IMG/VR virus record: IMGVR_UViG_2547132277_000011
From: a virus
Taxonomy: Duplodnaviria > Heunggongvirae > Uroviricota > Caudoviricetes
Length of the DNA: 8,833 bases
Strand: one strand, 5' to 3'
Positions 1 through 8,833 of the stretch are shown piece after piece. Every line of letters starts with the position of its first letter. Positions within the stretch are counted from its first letter, which is position 1. Made by a program: the position numbers and the translations under genes. The notes beneath the pieces are model-generated. The model was not told the DNA's origin. It was given only the letters and a program-made list of their open reading frames with translations, and did not search any database.

Positions 1-267
1 TTACTCTGCAGGTGAAGTCGGCCACTCAATATCAGGTGCGGTTGATGTATCAACACAGTTCAGCAACACCCGATACTTCTTCCAGGCTTCCAGCAACGAG
101 TTTTCTTCCTCCGTTGCGATCTCCAGATCTACAGCATCCTGAAGTGGCGCAATATGCTCACTGAATTCCTGGATGTAGAACTGTGTGGTGACGGTCTTCC
201 AGCCATTCGGCTCCTGCTGTATCGAAGCATACCAGGCTATTTCAATATCGCTATGCTGCGGCAGCAT
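1..267 (-). CDS. tfa: Tail fibre assembly (Tfa) family protein, short 88-aa form
   Basis: Complete ORF: ATG at 267..265, TAA at 3..1, with AAGGGG about 5 nt upstream of the ATG. The C-terminal ~55 aa ([53 protein letters not shown]) matches the conserved C-terminus of enterobacterial lambdoid Tfa proteins as I recall it (e.g. K-12 TfaR ...[25 protein letters not shown]...). The N-terminal ~35 aa is not recognisable. Very acidic (about 17 D/E versus 4 K/R). Confidence 0.7.
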
Positions 268-275
268 TTAACCCC

Positions 276-304
276 TTGTAATTCATCGCCACAATTGATT
301 TAAT
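276..304 (+). promoter_or_regulatory. Candidate sigma70 promoter for the methyltransferase gene (TTGTAA, 17-bp spacer, TTTAAT)
   Basis: -35-like TTGTAA at 276..281 and -10-like TTTAAT at 299..304 with a 17-bp spacer, 20 to 30 bp upstream of the ATGs at 324/336, in an AT-rich intergenic region. Sequence pattern only. Confidence 0.3.
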
Positions 305-323
305 TCACAAATAAAACTATAAC

Positions 324-992
324 ATGGTGAAATTAATGAAAAAAAACACAGATGATGGGGCTAAAATTTACACACCACTTACCCTAAAGCTTTATGACTG
401 GTGGGTTTTGGGAGTATCAAATCGGCTTGCATGGGGATGTCCTACAAAGGAACACCTTCTTCCACACTTTCTGGAACATTTAGGTAACAACCATCTGGAT
501 ATTGGTGTTGGAACTGGGTTTTACCTTACTCACGTACCTGAGAGTAGTCTGATATCTTTAATGGATTTGAACGAAGCTAGCCTGAACGCGGCATCGACAA
601 GGGCTGGGGAATCAAAAATTAAACATAAAATTAGCCATGATGTTTTTGAACCTTATCCCGCGGCATTACATGGTCAATTTGATTCCATTTCCATGTTTTA
701 CCTTCTTCACTGCCTGCCTGGAAATATATCTACAAAAAGCTGTGTAATACGCAATGCGGCGCAGGCCTTAACTGACGATGGAACTCTATACGGAGCCACA
801 ATTCTTGGTGACGGCGTTGTGCACAATAGCTTCGGTCAAAAACTGATGCGCATTTACAATCAAAAAGGCATCTTTTCAAACACAAAAGATTCCGAAGAAG
901 GCTTAACACATATACTCTCAGAGCATTTCGAGAATGTTAAAACCAAGATTAAAGGTACTGTAGTAATGTTTTCCGCTTCAGGGAAAAAATAG
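324..992 (+). CDS. ybcY: Class I SAM-dependent methyltransferase, UbiE/COQ5-like small-molecule type (not a DNA MTase by motif)
   Basis: 222-aa ORF with glycine-rich SAM-binding motif I (LDIGVGTG) and an upstream YDWWVLGVSNRLAWG segment resembling the UbiE-type motif. No DPPY/NPPY or PC/ENV DNA-MTase motifs seen. Start may be ATG 336 (GGTGA 5 nt upstream) rather than 324. Gene is markedly AT-rich (about 35% GC by hand count of the first 100 nt) compared with the neighbouring phage genes. The symbol is assigned from recalled synteny (a putative SAM MTase, ybcY, lies between tfaD and tfaX in K-12 DLP12), not from verified sequence identity. Confidence 0.85.
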   Translation: MVKLMKKNTDDGAKIYTPLTLKLYDWWVLGVSNRLAWGCPTKEHLLPHFLEHLGNNHLDIGVGTGFYLTHVPESSLISLMDLNEASLNAASTRAGESKIKHKISHDVFEPYPAALHGQFDSISMFYLLHCLPGNISTKSCVIRNAAQALTDDGTLYGATILGDGVVHNSFGQKLMRIYNQKGIFSNTKDSEEGLTHILSEHFENVKTKIKGTVVMFSASGKK

Positions 993-998
993 CATCCA

Positions 999-1033
999 GC
1001 CGCAGCACGTTCTTGCGCACGACGTGCTGCGGC
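999..1033. terminator. 12-bp perfect inverted repeat (GCCGCAGCACGT / ACGTGCTGCGGC) with an 11-nt loop, 7 bp after the MTase stop; possible bidirectional terminator or protein-binding site
   Basis: Arms at 999..1010 and 1022..1033 are exact reverse complements. No clean U-tract on either strand, so terminator function is uncertain. Confidence 0.35.
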
Positions 1034-1046
1034 ATAATCTCAATGA

Positions 1047-1175
1047 TTACTCCCTGACAGGGTTCGTAGGCCACTCAATATCAGGTGCAGTTGATGTACC
1101 AACACGGTTCAGCAACACCCTGCATGCCTTCCATGCCGCCAGCAATGATGTTTCCTCCTTCGTTGCATATACTGC
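1047..1175 (-). pseudogene. tfa: Tail fibre assembly (tfa) gene 3' remnant, C-terminal ~42 codons only
   Basis: Minus-strand frame translates to [42 protein letters not shown], homologous to the C-terminus of the 1..267 gene. Nucleotides about 1069..1170 are roughly 78 to 80% identical to 20..125 by hand alignment. The frame is closed by TGA at 1176..1178, so no N-terminal part remains. Confidence 0.65.
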
Positions 1176-1439
1176 TCACCTTTTTCACCCACGATTAACC
1201 AACAGCCAGATTCGCAGGCACGCCCCACCACGGCATATTCATACGCTTGCCATGTCCGAACATTTCAATCCAGCGATATTATGCCTGGGGTGTTCAAGCG
1301 CAATGAAGTACGTATTGTATCTTCGCGATTTTTTATAGGCTAATTGACGCGCAATTCTGAGCGGGGAGCGCACAATCAAACAGCACAGAATGGATCGCTG
1401 ATATTTATCCTTTTGTCGGTTTATCAAACAACAAGAGAG

Positions 1440-2654
1440 TCAATAGCGGATTGTCCCTACATCCATTTCTGGCGAATCCACTAACCAGAAATTATCTGGC
1501 TTTACAGCCAGAATGATCCAGGCAGTGTTTGTTGTTGATGACCAGGAAGGCAGCACATCGTATGCCGGGTCATCGCAAGAATCACGATAACCGTACTCAT
1601 TAAAAAGTGGAGCCATTGCTGCCACAAGATTCACCGCATTCAGCTCATTACCCAGCTTGCGCTCAAAAAGTGCCACACCTGCCGTTCCTTCCACCCACAC
1701 GCCACGGCTGTGACCACTATAACCATAATCAGGGTGGTACGGTGTGTAACCCGTGGTTTCCCTCGTACCAAATAAAAAACGCCCCATATATTTTCGGCAC
1801 TTAGCCGCTTTCTCAGCATCAATATTGGCAACAAACAATCCGCCCCAGGAAGACTGATCCAGCGCCGCTGCGTTGTCATAGTGGGTTGAATGAACCCCCT
1901 GTCGAAATCGGCCTTCATCTTCCACCCACAGACCTCTGATGATGCTCTTTGCCAGCCTGTCAGCCCGCTCACTGAAACCGTCAAATCCCAGCCGTCCCAT
2001 CAGTTCAAACAAAAACCAGATATCAACGTTATGCTCCAGTGCGCACCATTCGGCGACAAAAGTTTCATCAAAATTGCCGTCCACATAACGCCCCTGCCCC
2101 CCTTTATACAGGCCTTCACGCAGGTCGCCTGGTGTGCTCACCAGAAAAGTATCCAGCCAGGCAATGCCTGCCAATAGCTTTTCTCTGACCCGCGCAGTCT
2201 GAGTACCGTCCGGATACTTCTCCAGATAGAAAGCAAGAGCATAATAAACCCATGCCGCATTGCCCAAGCGGTAATAGGTACGCGGTGACATGGCAGACAG
2301 CCTGTTAACAAAAAACTTTACTCCACCGTTTTCATCAACAAGCGCACACAAGCCCGCAACGTATCTTTCTACAGCCTCATGTCGCTGAACCATCAACGCC
2401 AGTGCTGCCAGCGCCTGGTCATACGTGTAACACCGATCTTTCATCACCCTGATCACTTCGGGGTCTGCGTCCTCCGGCATCCAGTAGCTACGAATGAGCA
2501 GTGGAAACTCCAGCGTTGTGATCCACGCATTATCCTCAATCCGAATAAGACGAAACTGTTTTGCTCCCGTCCAGCAACGTCTGAAATAGAAAGTTCCGTC
2601 ACTATTCAAATTAGCGTCGCCGTTAAAATACTCTCCGGTTGTATAAGCATACAT
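1440..2654 (-). CDS. Hypothetical protein, 404 aa, function unknown (possibly an alpha-helical enzyme-like fold; alternatively the C-terminal domain of a larger deleted gene)
   Basis: Uninterrupted 1215-nt ORF with enterobacterial-looking codon usage; ATG at 2654..2652 with a weak SD. The frame is closed by TGA 12 codons upstream (2693..2691). No signal peptide or Walker motifs seen. Not recognisable to me as any lambdoid morphogenetic protein. Confidence 0.75.
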   Translation of the reverse strand: MYAYTTGEYFNGDANLNSDGTFYFRRCWTGAKQFRLIRIEDNAWITTLEFPLLIRSYWMPEDADPEVIRVMKDRCYTYDQALAALALMVQRHEAVERYVAGLCALVDENGGVKFFVNRLSAMSPRTYYRLGNAAWVYYALAFYLEKYPDGTQTARVREKLLAGIAWLDTFLVSTPGDLREGLYKGGQGRYVDGNFDETFVAEWCALEHNVDIWFLFELMGRLGFDGFSERADRLAKSIIRGLWVEDEGRFRQGVHSTHYDNAAALDQSSWGGLFVANIDAEKAAKCRKYMGRFLFGTRETTGYTPYHPDYGYSGHSRGVWVEGTAGVALFERKLGNELNAVNLVAAMAPLFNEYGYRDSCDDPAYDVLPSWSSTTNTAWIILAVKPDNFWLVDSPEMDVGTIRY

Positions 2655-3235
2655 ATCGACTTTATACTTTTCAGGTTCAGCCTGTTGCTCTCATCACTGG
2701 TCATGGGAATAAAGTCCGGCTCGAGCGCCTCCAGCCAGAAATGAACACCGGCAGAAGGCGTCAGGCTGTTTATGCGCCCGGAAACCATCTGGGCAAACAC
2801 CTCACCATCGCGCAGCCAGGTACGCAGCATCAGACGTTCCAGCATCGGACGGGTAAACTGCCCGGTGACCTCCGGACTGACAGACCATTCACTCCATCGG
2901 GTGCGTATCTCCGCTGCCAGATCACGGGCAATGGCCCCATTGCGTAATACCGGATGTGGCTCGACAATAATCCCGTTTTTCCCCACCACCCGTTCTTCCA
3001 GCTTGTCAAATACACCAATGACCAGATCGTGGTTGTTATCAAGGTAACGGGCCTGCTCACGTAACGACACGGCCCCGTACTGGCTTAACTGATCGGCAGT
3101 TCGGTTCTCCCGTCGGGCTTTGTGTGTCCGCGTCGTTTTTACGGCCTCATAAGCCTGGATCACCGCACGGGAACGCAGCCTTGCCGCTTTCCATCCTGGT
3201 GAAAAAACGCCAATCACATCATCAAGAATTGCCAT
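2606..3235 (-). pseudogene. B: Portal protein gene, N-terminal fragment (about 205 codons of an expected 500 or more); truncated near 2655..2700
   Basis: ORF begins MAILDDVIGVFSPGWKAARL... at ATG 3235..3233, overlapping the gpW stop (TGATG), which is the position of the portal gene in the lambda order Nu1-A-W-B. It stops at 2606 after about 209 codons, the last ~28 of which (SNRLNLKSIKSICMLIQPESILTATLI) look non-portal. The ORF-track start at 3307 is an upstream in-frame artefact inside W. Confidence 0.7.
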
Positions 3236-3453
3236 CAGAACCTCGCCAGCCGGTACCCGGGATGCCCCCGTCGTCGTGTAATCAGAGCCGCAAGGCGGCG
3301 CTCCCACTCCTGCCGCCCCTGCCGGATCTCAGATAAGTTTTCCATGGTCATCTGCTGACCATTAAAAGTGACGGATTTTCCGTCCAGCACCGCCATTTCA
3401 GCTTCCGTATAACGCTGAATCATGGCTTCGATATCATTCTGGTTCATAACCAT
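3235..3453 (-). CDS. W: Head-tail joining / head completion protein gpW-like (72 aa)
   Basis: Small ORF immediately downstream of the large terminase, overlapping it by 10 nt. The C-terminus ...ITRRRGHPGYRLARF resembles lambda gpW ...RRRGPAGFYV. Size and position match lambda W. Confidence 0.85.
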   Translation of the reverse strand: MVMNQNDIEAMIQRYTEAEMAVLDGKSVTFNGQQMTMENLSEIRQGRQEWERRLAALITRRRGHPGYRLARF

Positions 3454-6489: not shown

Positions 6490-6855
6490 TTACTCAGTAA
6501 CGACCGCGCCTTCCGGTAATTTCATACCGGCAAATACCGGCAGCCCGGGGATCGTTATCTGCAGCTGGTTAGCCAGGGAGTTAATCTCAGCGACCAACAC
6601 TGGCTTCGTATAGCGCCATGCCGCCAGCCCTTGTCCACAGAAGCTCGCCATATCTTTTTTCTGATCAAACTCATGACACTTCATATTGAGCTGCGCACTT
6701 AAGCTGTTGCGATGCTGAAGTTCTCCGGTGAAGTAGTCATCCAGGACTTTATAGGCTGCATATTTAAATCCGGGGTTTAGCCATGCTGCATAATCATAAG
6801 CAACAAACTTCCCGCCATATGTTCCACCGTGTACACCGCGCTCAGTAAAAACCAC
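6490..6855 (-). CDS. Hypothetical protein; the N-terminal part resembles the C-terminal half of a KilA-N domain; possibly an N-terminally truncated remnant
   Basis: GVHGGTYGGKFVAYDYAAWLNPGFKYAAYKVL fits the KilA-N-type pattern G-T-W/Y...A...A-WL-S/N-P-x-F as I recall it. The only start candidate is GTG 6855 with a weak SD; the first ATG is internal. The frame runs directly in phase from the Rz stop (TAG 6879..6877). Confidence 0.4.
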   Translation of the reverse strand: MVFTERGVHGGTYGGKFVAYDYAAWLNPGFKYAAYKVLDDYFTGELQHRNSLSAQLNMKCHEFDQKKDMASFCGQGLAAWRYTKPVLVAEINSLANQLQITIPGLPVFAGMKLPEGAVVTE

Positions 6856-6876
6856 AGATTCGTGTTTTTTCTCCAG

Positions 6877-7344
6877 CTACTTAATGCGCTGGGTGCGGAT
6901 ATATTCCTGCGCCCCTTCCAGTTGCTTCTGCATCGTCATCAACCGTTCTCTGAGGGTGAAATAATCCCGTTCAGCGGTGTCTGCCAGTCGGGGGCTGGTT
7001 GCATTATCCATGCTGGTGGGTCCGGTGGCTTCACGCACGGCTGCGGAGCAACTGGCATTGACCCGCAGGCGCTTACGACCAGCGGCAACATCAGCGCGCA
7101 GAGTTTCATTTTCAGTTTTCGCATCGGCTAACTCCTTCGTGTATTTTGCATCGATCGCAGCAACATCACGCTGACGCTGCTGCATGTCAGCGATGGTGGC
7201 GGTCGCCTGCTTCAGCTCACTGACTTTTTTATCACGCTGTTCTTTGTAGGCGATGGCGTTATCACGGTAATGATTCAGCCCCAGACTAAGCACAACACAG
7301 GCCACCAGCAGCATAGCAATCACTACATACAGAACACGGTTCAT
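6877..7344 (-). CDS. Rz: Rz i-spanin (inner-membrane spanin), 155 aa from ATG 7344
   Basis: MNRVLYVVIAMLLVACVVLSLGLNHYRDNAIAYKEQRDK...DAKYTKELADAK...SPRLADTAERDYFTLRERL.TMQKQLEG matches lambda Rz near-colinearly. The ORF-track start at 7428 is an upstream GTG; I prefer ATG 7344, which aligns with the lambda Rz N-terminus. Confidence 0.9.
   Translation of the reverse strand: MNRVLYVVIAMLLVACVVLSLGLNHYRDNAIAYKEQRDKKVSELKQATATIADMQQRQRDVAAIDAKYTKELADAKTENETLRADVAAGRKRLRVNASCSAAVREATGPTSMDNATSPRLADTAERDYFTLRERLMTMQKQLEGAQEYIRTQRIK
6939..7124 (-). CDS. Rz1: Rz1 o-spanin (outer-membrane lipoprotein), 61 aa, embedded out of frame within Rz
   Basis: MRKLKMKLCALMLPLVVSACGS...CVKPPDPPAWIMQPAPDWQTPLNGIISPSENG matches lambda Rz1 (MLKLKMMLCVMMLPLVVVGC...PAWIMQPPPDWQTPLNGIISPSERG). 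Lipobox LVVSAC and a proline-rich body are present. It lies wholly inside Rz in another frame, as in lambda. Confidence 0.9.
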   Translation of the reverse strand: MRKLKMKLCALMLPLVVSACGSMPVAPQPCVKPPDPPAWIMQPAPDWQTPLNGIISPSENG

Positions 7345-7612
7345 ATCACCACCAACGGATTGCCCAGACCAGAACAGCGACCGCCACAAGGCGAATTGCA
7401 AAGGCCGTTGCCCGAATAAAATCAGCACTCATCTGTTTAAATAAATTGTTGTGTATGCAACCAGTGCAGTACAAATAATCCATGCAACTGGCGTCAGTAT
7501 ATGTCTGATGCCCCGGCATACCGCGATGATTTTTGCGGCATCGTCAGCACCCTGCGAAGTTGTTTCTGCTTTTATCATCAGTTGCCATGTCCCTCATGAC
7601 ACCCATCACCAC

Positions 7613-7895
7613 TCACGATTTCAGAGCAACAATCAATTTTGCCAGCCCATACAGCATCGGAGACACGGCGATGCCAACCGCCACCCACTTAATGGCAAAA
7701 GCCACCGCCCGGATAAGGCAGAGATTCGCCGTATTTTCTGTCTTATCTACAAACATATGCTATCGCTGCAACCGCAAAACCAATTGCCCCGATCATTGCC
7801 GATAATGCAAGAATAATTCCGGCAATATTTGCTGCTTTAGGTGTCATACTGCACCCTATACTCAGAAAGGTTTTATTGTTATCCTTTACCTGCAT
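7613..7895 (-). pseudogene. S-like class I holin remnant, apparently frameshifted into two short ORFs (7743..7895 and 7613..7756)
   Basis: Hand translation gives MQVKDNNKTFLSIGCSMTPKAANIAGIILALSAMIGAIGFAVAAIAYVCR* and, in a second frame, MFVDKTENTANLCLIRAVAFAIKWVAVGIAVSPMLYGLAKLIVALKS*. These resemble lambda S TMD1 ([27 protein letters not shown]) and the following FTKTVIDATMCAIIAWFIRD region. The frame break near 7745..7760 is at the position corresponding to lambda RGRYNGGAF. Both pieces are below the ORF-track size cutoff. Confidence 0.35.
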
Positions 7896-7927
7896 GAATT
7901 ATATCCATGTCTGATTTGTCAAAATGC

Positions 7928-7956
7928 AACCCCGGACTGTTCCCCCAGCCGGGGTT
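7928..7956 (-). terminator. Rho-independent terminator-like hairpin (8-bp stem AACCCCGG/CCGGGGTT, 13-nt loop) followed on the minus strand by GCAUUUUG; analogous in position to lambda tR' upstream of S
   Basis: Perfect 8-bp GC-rich stem at 7928..7935 and 7949..7956 with a U-run immediately 3' on the minus strand. A T-run also follows on the plus strand, so it could act bidirectionally. It sits directly upstream of the holin-like remnant. Confidence 0.5.
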
Positions 7957-8149
7957 TTACTTTTATTCACTTACCTTTTGCCAGTTTGCAGGATTTCGTG
8001 TTATCCGCTCGCGGGAGCACACGCCATTTTTCAGCAAAATATTCTGCTAGCTGTCGATACCCCAGCACACCAGTGCCGCTTCCTGGTCACGGCGAATAAC
8101 CTGTCCATAGCAGTTATTTGAACGTATGCGGCAATCGCGTCCACCATCT

Positions 8150-8833
<684 letters not shown>

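Follow-up and report, generated by a model that had tools for sequence, protein, structure and literature searches.

The subject of this analysis is a 550-nt interval (positions 7346-7895) within an 8,833-nt stretch of viral DNA, hereafter called the window, from the IMG/VR virus record IMGVR_UViG_2547132277_000011 (Caudoviricetes). The interval lies between the 3′ end of an endolysin gene and the spanin genes Rz/Rz1, and all relevant genes are carried on the minus strand of the window. An original prediction, made from the letters of the window alone, had taken this interval for a decayed lysis cassette with a frameshifted holin and a specifically lost endolysin. We found that it holds four small open reading frames (ORFs), A to D, which are very probably real, selected mini-genes and not debris of lysis genes. 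Our tentative overall reading is that they form an intact accessory mini-gene array in the endolysin-Rz/Rz1 slot, whose dispensable products are expressed late and modulate the membrane steps of lysis. The array is an uncharacterized example of accessory cargo genes in phage late operons.

All four mini-genes are co-oriented and tightly packed on the minus strand. Mini-gene A (7743..7895) encodes a 50-aa protein of the phrog_12997 family with one hydrophobic helix and a net charge of +3, as judged from the ORF list, PHROG matches and hydropathy. Mini-gene B (7613..7756; PHROG matches, homologs and structural model), of the phrog_1115/3246/4493 family, encodes 47 aa predicted to form a single long helix, also with a net charge of +3. 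Mini-gene C (7429..7578; homolog clusters and model) encodes 49 aa with a net charge of +2, in which an N-proximal IIAxCRGIRHxLTPxAW motif is followed by a hydrophobic helix. Mini-gene D (7346..7432) encodes 28 aa ending in ...RWW and was identified by BLASTP to B, a DNA repeat and PHROG 4493. The translations of C and D are exactly those of the original prediction. A and B are in different frames and share 14 nt, the start of B lying inside the end of A; the stop of C and the start of D share ATGA; and the D stop (TGA, 7348-7346) is separated by one base from the Rz ATG (7344-7342), where the two had been described as overlapping. We read this packing as translational coupling.

The tiling of the interval is unlikely to be accidental. 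Four ORFs that begin with ATG, are at least 28 aa long and contain a 15-residue window of strong hydrophobicity together account for 93% of the 550 nt. When the sequence was shuffled 5000 times with its dinucleotide content preserved, four such ORFs never arose and 93% coverage was reached once, so the arrangement is not explained by chance. The GC fraction of the array is 0.47, compared with 0.54 in its flanks (Rz, the lysozyme 3′ end and terL). According to hydropathy, each product carries a net charge of +2 to +3 and one hydrophobic helix-length segment, with C-terminal flanks of 0-5 residues. Because the cores are long and uncharged and the hydrophobic moments low (0.15-0.33), the products look more like transmembrane (TM) peptides than surface-active amphipathic ones. 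AlphaFold modeled B and C each as a single continuous helix (residues 2-46 of B with a predicted local distance difference test score, pLDDT, of 85; residues 9-48 of C with a pLDDT of 81). Searches of A-D against Pfam (no hit at E ≤ 1), NCBIfam and PADLOC returned no match. The longest ORF in the interval is a 121-aa frame on the plus strand (7451..7816), accompanied by a 90-aa plus-strand ORF at 7533-7805, and both lie opposite B and C. In all likelihood they are spurious, since they cross a B-C junction confined to the present arrangement and run antisense to selected genes; their frames gave no better selection signal. The earlier statement that the interval has no endolysin-sized ORF is thereby upheld.

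Comparison of alleles indicates purifying selection on the proteins, with ratios of nonsynonymous to synonymous substitution rates (dN/dS) of 0.09-0.32 in the annotated frames of A-D. For the B core, dN/dS was 0.15 compared with 0.41-10 in the other five frames (20 DNA alleles from 87 loci), and the annotated frame alone was both open in all alleles and low in dN/dS. For C (three alleles), the value was 0.09 against 1.6 and 2.3 in the shifted sense frames, the antisense frames contained stops, and 10 of the 13 variable sites fell at codon position 3. A gave 0.10-0.18 at a dS of about 1, compared with 0.8-1.9 in shifted frames, when three contexts were compared. Discrimination was weak for D, the weakest of the four, at 0.32 versus 0.42 in one antisense frame; its variable sites were distributed 9/1/10 over the codon positions, with position 2 almost fixed (1 of 20), and the substitutions among its alleles were conservative (V/I, D/E, F/L).

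Remains of lysis genes were sought by tblastn in all frames, using the cassette holin, YdfR and lysozyme of an intact relative as queries; lambda S and R served only as leads. No frame of 7346-7895 matched the holin, YdfR or the lysozyme, and no alignment within the interval had an E value below about 1. For the cassette holin and lambda S, the best E value anywhere in the window was at least 0.58 and nothing was significant in the interval, and the best lysozyme match inside the interval covered five residues (E = 1.1). The two hydrophobic ORFs in different frames that the original prediction had mentioned besides C and D do exist, as A and B, but their description as S-holin-like failed because neither tblastn nor Pfam gave a holin match and each is a full-length member of its own small-protein family; among the PHROGs, A had a weak match to a holin family that was confined to the TM segment (E = 0.036). 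Holins have 2-3 TM domains and a charged C-terminal tail, a trait that none of A-D shows, each having one hydrophobic segment. The original prediction had offered frameshifted holin/endolysin debris as a reading, and had named an alignment showing the region to be unrelated to lysis genes as the finding that would speak against it; this is what the tblastn search gave. The endolysin was not specifically lost, as its 3′ end is present at 8050-8150 (E = 1e-18) and the rest lies beyond an IS21-like insertion. Of the supposed decay of the cassette, it is true that the element is a remnant, for other reasons, but the holin is intact upstream and so is the array. The hedged option that small membrane-active peptides were retained is the part of that prediction supported by the present data, namely by conserved families, purifying selection and predicted hydrophobic cores of helix length.

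Each mini-gene has relatives. A matches phrog_12997 (E = 5.4e-7, residues 6-48 of 50), and its relatives in Escherichia coli and Citrobacter are 74-84% identical. B matches phrog_1115 (E = 4e-19), phrog_3246 (E = 8.7e-15) and phrog_4493 (E = 1.7e-13), families annotated as 'unknown function', and D matches the same three (E = 0.017, 2.3e-5 and 2.4e-6, respectively). The 88 homolog clusters of B, from E. coli and Salmonella, have an almost invariant core, AFAIKWVAVGIAVSPMLYGLAKL(V/I)(I/V)ALKS, and variable N-terminal leaders. For C, 29 homolog clusters were obtained from E. coli and Salmonella; identity falls to about 70%, and 12 residues, most of them in the motif given above, are invariant. 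B and D are related to each other: BLASTP aligned them with 11 of 18 residues identical (E = 8e-5), their DNA contains a 40-nt repeat at 70% identity, and the Salmonella protein P0168, which has the length of B (49 aa) and ends in ...RWW, bridges the two types. D is a shortened paralog of B, so that A-D represent three families; it resembles a B-type gene that has lost an internal part and now reads on into the linker. The superfamily formed by B and D is narrow. An exhaustive profile search of 1.84 billion proteins returned 11 representatives, all close, with no deeper homology, and a scan of representative genomes with the B alignment returned nothing.

P0168 was also seen in another setting. 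At Salmonella loci L090 (2501-3101) and L091, it survives together with an Rz gene as a small prophage remnant beside a SopD-family gene and an IS110 element; the collection lists the protein in 1647 blocks, which could reflect clonal sampling or retention of the P0168-Rz pair. Another Salmonella locus (L094:2501-3009) holds a C-family gene of 51 aa after tail-fibre genes, with a stop that overlaps the start of a DUF1353 gene and with hok/gef nearby, and C may have a different partner in this context.

Leaders have been exchanged between the families: an E-type leader (family E is introduced below) occurs on a C body, and a C leader on a B core. A and C were also considered as paralogs, a relation for which no alignment was obtained; only the N-terminal leader 'MQVK.N' is common to A and the long forms of C. 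Two arrangements of split genes were tried and rejected. The first took A and B as one frameshifted gene, as B matches only the C-terminal half of the 67-90-aa PHROG profiles; it was rejected because B-type genes of 38-60 aa with their own Shine-Dalgarno (SD) sequence stand alone in viable phages, as do A-type genes of 49-50 aa elsewhere. The longer PHROG forms are ORF-calling extensions or rare E-B fusions. The second, prompted by the Salmonella protein P0073 (a C leader on a B core), took C and D as a B-type gene split by an insertion, and was rejected as the main reading because C is conserved as a family of its own.

The slot between the endolysin and the last lysis gene was then compared across phages. 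IMG/VR was searched with the B alignment and all small forward ORFs were classified, which gave 87 loci with 24 different fillings of the slot. Among them were B-E (34 loci), A-B-C-D (15 loci, including the window) and F-E-B-D (8 loci), and B-D, B-C-D, A-B, B alone and B-E-B-D also occurred; E (43-44 aa) and F (31 aa) are two more families of single-helix mini-genes found in the slot. The endolysin before the slot is an rrrQ-type lysozyme, a Glyco_hydro_108/PG_binding_3 enzyme or a Peptidase_M15_4 enzyme, the cassette holin is of class II or consists of Phage_holin_8 plus Phage_holin_3_7, and the terminal gene is Rz/Rz1 or a 60-aa lipoprotein gene, 'LPP' (phrog_7528). Among phage isolates that form plaques, 569R3 and PhiR5_1 carry F-E-B plus an unannotated D, PhiR12_3 carries B-E, and the Shiga toxin (Stx) phage P27 carries Ant-E; in O157:H7, the order is holin, YdfR, lysozyme, B, E, Rz. 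ORFs A-D adjoin intact lysozyme genes elsewhere, and B and D occur in viable phages. Among 5426 complete E. coli genomes, 1807 (about a third) share the interval at least in part, in most cases the B core, and the whole array is present in 30. In K-12 Qin, rrrQ overlaps rzpQ with nothing between them, so the array is accessory.

Several records are worth noting beside this comparison. The 28-aa D lies unannotated just upstream of Rz in the records of vB_EcoS-569R3/705R7/783R2 and PhiR5_1 (L003:1081-1176, L004:1600-1695). The second type of cassette, with Phage_holin_8 plus Phage_holin_3_7 and a GH108 or M15_4 endolysin, ends in a lipoprotein of 60-65 aa (phrog_7528, lipobox LLVGC) and not in Rz/Rz1; this type was seen at L019-L030, L037, L077, L079 and L086 (for example L027:2868-3050). 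No partner of i-spanin size was found near the lipoprotein. It might act as an o-spanin-like protein without a partner, disrupt the outer membrane in a new way, or serve as an exclusion lipoprotein.

At the boundary between lysozyme and cargo, a terminator-shaped hairpin (AAAACCCCGG...CCGGGGTT followed by a T-rich tail) was located at 7925..7957 on the minus strand by a terminator scan and folding (-22.3 kcal/mol, z = -3.75); a terminator-like hairpin had been part of the original prediction, and it is indeed there. The stem is kept with compensatory changes in four contexts (CCCCGG/CCGGGG, GCCCCGA/UCGGGGC, GCCCGGA/UCCGGGC), as found by folding the variants one by one. Three unrelated terminator-shaped hairpins occupy the same site just 3′ of the lysozyme gene in different lambdoid phages (window 7925-7957; L005:1340-1380; L006:1700-1740), which suggests that a structure at this site is functionally conserved inside the Q-antiterminated operon. 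The hairpin might be an insulator against non-Q transcription, an element of RNA processing or stability, or a recombination boundary. About 90 nt just 3′ of the lysozyme stop (window 7958-8046; GCAGAATATTTTGCTGAAAAATG...GATAACACGAAATCCTGC.AACTGGCAAAA..TAAGTGAATAAAAGTAAAA) are also kept despite differing downstream cargo (L003, L005, L006, L029), and no ORF or RNA family explains the conservation of this segment.

Signals for separate expression of the array were scanned by consensus. A promoter of its own, TTGACA (7922-7917)/TATAAT (7903-7898), was considered and dropped because the 13-nt spacing is wrong and neither spacing nor sequence is conserved in relatives. The opposite strand within the array showed no promoter- or terminator-like site in the consensus scans, which leave a novel small RNA possible, and Rfam gave only sub-threshold chance matches and no known antitoxin small RNA. 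No terminator lies between D and Rz. The last codons and stop of D form an SD-like GGTGGTGAT, one base before the Rz ATG, and the junction CGT TGG TGG TGA T ATG is identical in 31 loci, where it stands ahead of Rz or the lipoprotein gene (three different downstream genes). The junctions of B are TGA-GTGGTGAT-ATG before the lipoprotein gene or an AGAGGA Shine-Dalgarno before E.

From these data we propose, somewhat more guardedly than the overall reading, that the mini-genes have a late role as lysis modulators. A-D would be transcribed only within the Q-antiterminated late transcript that reads through the hairpin, and would be translated by coupling. When lysis is due, their peptides would enter the inner membrane and modulate the membrane steps of the process, for example the triggering or timing of the holin or the action of the spanins, while being dispensable; D would in addition deliver ribosomes to Rz. 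A further step, which we offer as a speculation that is unlikely to hold, is that the B/D mini-proteins together with E and F are an unrecognized, dedicated class of components of Gram-negative lysis cassettes. As small peptides of the inner membrane, they would adjust how spanins or holins act, or how one hands over to the other, would be hard-wired by translation to the last lysis gene, and would occur in Stx phages and in roughly one E. coli genome in three.

Several observations weigh against the proposed modulator role. Relatives of A and C are not confined to lysis cassettes but also follow tail-fibre genes, adjoin int/AlpA or lie close to AntA and baseplate genes, so that at least these two are not lysis-specific and behave as generic mobile cargo, and one B-C-D array sits after an immunoglobulin (Ig)-domain structural gene. 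The families are independent of the type of holin, endolysin and terminal gene, which argues against a specific partner among them. A and C were not found by tblastn in the collection of phage isolates. SD sequences are weak or absent upstream of A (at 7895), B and D, and the translation of these three therefore rests on inferred coupling. The lack of a promoter on the gene strand, which otherwise favors the late-operon reading, comes from a scan of 7200-8150 that covered sigma-70 consensus promoters only. Full-text literature searches, including by RefSeq accession, returned no description of the A-D proteins and no function for them. Finally, this copy lies in a dead prophage and may do nothing here.

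The main rival is that A-D are classic morons, expressed from the repressed prophage to the benefit of the lysogen, for example as superinfection-exclusion or envelope-modifying inner-membrane peptides, with the lysis cassette serving as a permissive site. We regard this as possible though somewhat unlikely. It is favored by the wider distribution of A and C, whose relatives occupy textbook moron sites, namely the prophage end after tail-fibre genes and the position beside int/AlpA. The array also has a GC content below that of its flanks and is missing from the otherwise syntenic K-12 Qin cassette, a hairpin accompanies the A unit in four contexts, and Stx phages have different cargo, for instance Ant, in the same slot. 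The moron explanation is countered by the missing promoter and by the coupling to Rz. The gene strand has no sigma-70-like promoter within the array or shortly before it, the TTGACA/TATAAT pair being mis-spaced and unconserved, and the hairpin lies upstream and not downstream of the genes, a position from which it would stop an independent transcript and not delimit one. Nothing intervenes between D and Rz, whose junction is suited to coupled translation, and PADLOC gave no hits.

For D only, it is conceivable, if quite unlikely, that the peptide is incidental and that the gene is a short upstream ORF supplying ribosome delivery and a Shine-Dalgarno sequence to Rz or the lipoprotein gene. The identical junction in 31 loci before three different downstream genes is consistent with this, as are the frame-specific selection, which is weakest for D, and the appearance of D as an internally deleted B-type gene running into the linker. 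The conservative substitutions of D and its nearly invariant second codon positions argue for a selected peptide instead, and P0168 retains an entire B-like peptide while ending in RWW.

Less likely still is that the mini-genes encode small membrane toxins (type I toxins or abortive infection) or auxiliary depolarizing peptides that are silenced by antisense RNA or by non-transcription. Their size of 28-50 aa, single hydrophobic helix and positive charge do resemble Hok, TisB and Ldr-type peptides, and a C relative in Salmonella shares its cargo region with hok/gef. This explanation is nevertheless improbable in view of the lack of an Rfam match, of promoter- or terminator-like sites on the opposite strand of the array, and of any Pfam, NCBIfam or PADLOC toxin match, and because four tandem co-oriented genes coupled to Rz are unlike known type I modules. 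The debris reading of the original prediction is effectively refuted: the prophage is a remnant with an endolysin inactivated in strain B2C, A and B overlap in different frames and A has its weak TM-only holin match, but no frame resembles the holin, YdfR or lysozyme, whose true genes lie upstream, and A-D are full-length members of conserved families under purifying selection, found beside intact lysozyme genes and, for B and D, in viable phages.

The source of the window was identified by comparison with complete genomes. Over bases 6800-8250 (1,451 bases searched), the window and the chromosome of E. coli strain B2C (NZ_CP035874.1) show 100% identity, and about 30 further complete genomes are 100% identical from window position 8150 downward. 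The window is part of a cryptic lambdoid prophage. In strain 99-3165, which lacks the insertion, the order begins with tRNA genes, a class II holin of 71 aa, a YdfR-family protein and the lysozyme rrrQ (177 aa); about 700 bp with two annotated 'hypothetical proteins' of 47 and 28 aa follow, then Rz (155 aa, 'lysis protein'), a truncated KilA-N/ORF11CD3 gene, a DUF1441 protein, the large terminase and a truncated portal. The YdfR-family gene (L001:3201-3515, outside the window) lies between holin and lysozyme in the same type of cassette, including those of K-12 Qin and O157:H7.

In B2C, the lysozyme gene is interrupted by the IS21-like insertion sequence (IS) ISEc62 (istA/istB), with the holin and YdfR annotated upstream, while in the 100%-identical relatives it is uninterrupted (177 aa). 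The endolysin of B2C is inactivated by the ISEc62 insertion, outside 7346-7895, and not by loss. The 3′ part of istB, the helper ATPase gene of ISEc62, occupies 8207..8833 on the minus strand according to the NZ_CP035874.1 annotation (ORF 8207..8722), and both the gene and the IS run past the end of the window. The terminal segment of the element (8151..8206, minus strand) was delimited by IS-free genomes, which align only from 8150 down, and by the lysozyme fragments that flank istA/istB; the boundary between IS and prophage, placed near 8150/8151, may be off by a few bases. Next to it is the 3′ remnant of the rrrQ-type lysozyme (8047..8150, minus strand; about 34 codons and the stop TAG at 8047-8049), which is annotated as partial in B2C and was detected by tblastn with the intact lysozyme of a relative (residues 141-177 at 8160..8050).

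On the other side of the array, both spanin genes are intact. Rz, the i-spanin (155 aa; 6877..7344, minus strand), matches PF03245 (E = 1.3e-49) and is annotated in RefSeq as 'lysis protein' (WP_001529875.1). Rz1, the o-spanin lipoprotein (61 aa; 6939..7124, minus strand), matches PF06085 (E = 1.4e-18) and is nested in Rz in another frame. The flanking genes thus show both marks of a two-component Rz/Rz1 spanin, the Pfam Phage_lysis domain and an embedded Rz1 lipoprotein gene. Further along, the prophage is a remnant: the portal ends after profile position 149 of 354 and structural genes are missing, and beyond the portal come a 404-aa ORF that matches nothing in Pfam, fragments of tail-fibre-assembly genes and a methyltransferase. 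The truncated lambda-family portal abutting the 404-aa ORF (1440-2654 and 2606-3307, both on the minus strand) marks a deletion of head and tail genes. Two C-terminal fragments of Caudo_TAP, a tail-fibre-assembly family (1-267 and 1047-1145, both on the minus strand), have a common 11-residue ending, and between them, on the opposite strand (324-992, plus), lies a 222-aa S-adenosylmethionine (SAM)-methyltransferase-like gene. The latter looks like cargo in a tail-fibre region that may be invertible.

These results bear on annotation. Runs of tiny hydrophobic ORFs in lysis cassettes should not be annotated as wreckage of holin or endolysin genes, and several phage records leave D and parts of the array without annotation. 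In enterobacterial lambdoid phages, the junction between endolysin and spanin genes is a busy cargo slot of shuffled, selected and very common mini-genes. If it is true that one of the families modulates lysis timing or spanin function, a new component would be added to a pathway thought to be well understood, and as Stx phages carry an E-type gene, such modulation could affect Stx release. If the products are exclusion factors instead, they would be an abundant and overlooked class of mini-defence genes. The window copy itself, in a dead prophage, is probably of no consequence to the host.

The array can be compared with several known systems. The type I toxins Hok/Gef, TisB, Ldr and Ibs are small, single-helix, cationic peptides. 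The cationic lysis peptide gp28 ('disruptin') of phage phiKT is encoded in a lysis cassette (bioRxiv 10.1101/515445). A-D share with these peptides the size range, the single helix and the net positive charge, and with gp28 also the location in a lysis cassette; unlike them, they have no antisense RNA signature and no family match, and as spanins are present here, no substitute outer-membrane disruptor such as gp28 is needed. The class II holin S21/EssQ and lambda S are likewise small, hydrophobic and encoded in the same operon. S21 has two TM domains and a charged C-terminal tail, whereas A-D have one helix each and no similarity to the 71-aa cassette holin, which is intact upstream.

Closer in position are the accessory membrane proteins of lysis cassettes, which include the antiholins and regulators LydB of P1, LysA of P2 and RI of T4. 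The releasin gp25 of phage Mu is a further member of this group (PMC9239132). Like these, A-D are predicted to be small membrane proteins; their genes lie in a lysis cassette near endolysin and spanin genes, in late-operon orientation, and are dispensable for the basic scheme. They differ in having no sequence relation to them (no Pfam or PHROG lysis annotation), and in that the known regulators target a specific holin or signal-anchor-release (SAR) endolysin, whereas A-D are independent of holin and endolysin type.

The usual view of the lambdoid lysis module is that of four genes (PMC2629481), and accessory cargo between conserved lambdoid genes is described by the moron concept of Hendrix and Juhala (reviewed in PMC3594210), which has been applied to late operons (PMC2629481). 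Unlike classic morons, the array has no detected promoter of its own, its hairpin lies upstream where a moron would have a downstream terminator, its last gene is translationally tied into the operon, and its units are very small (28-50 aa) and stacked four in a row. Like morons, it is present or absent between otherwise syntenic cassettes, deviates in GC content, is reshuffled in a mosaic manner, and has relatives of A and C at other cargo sites.

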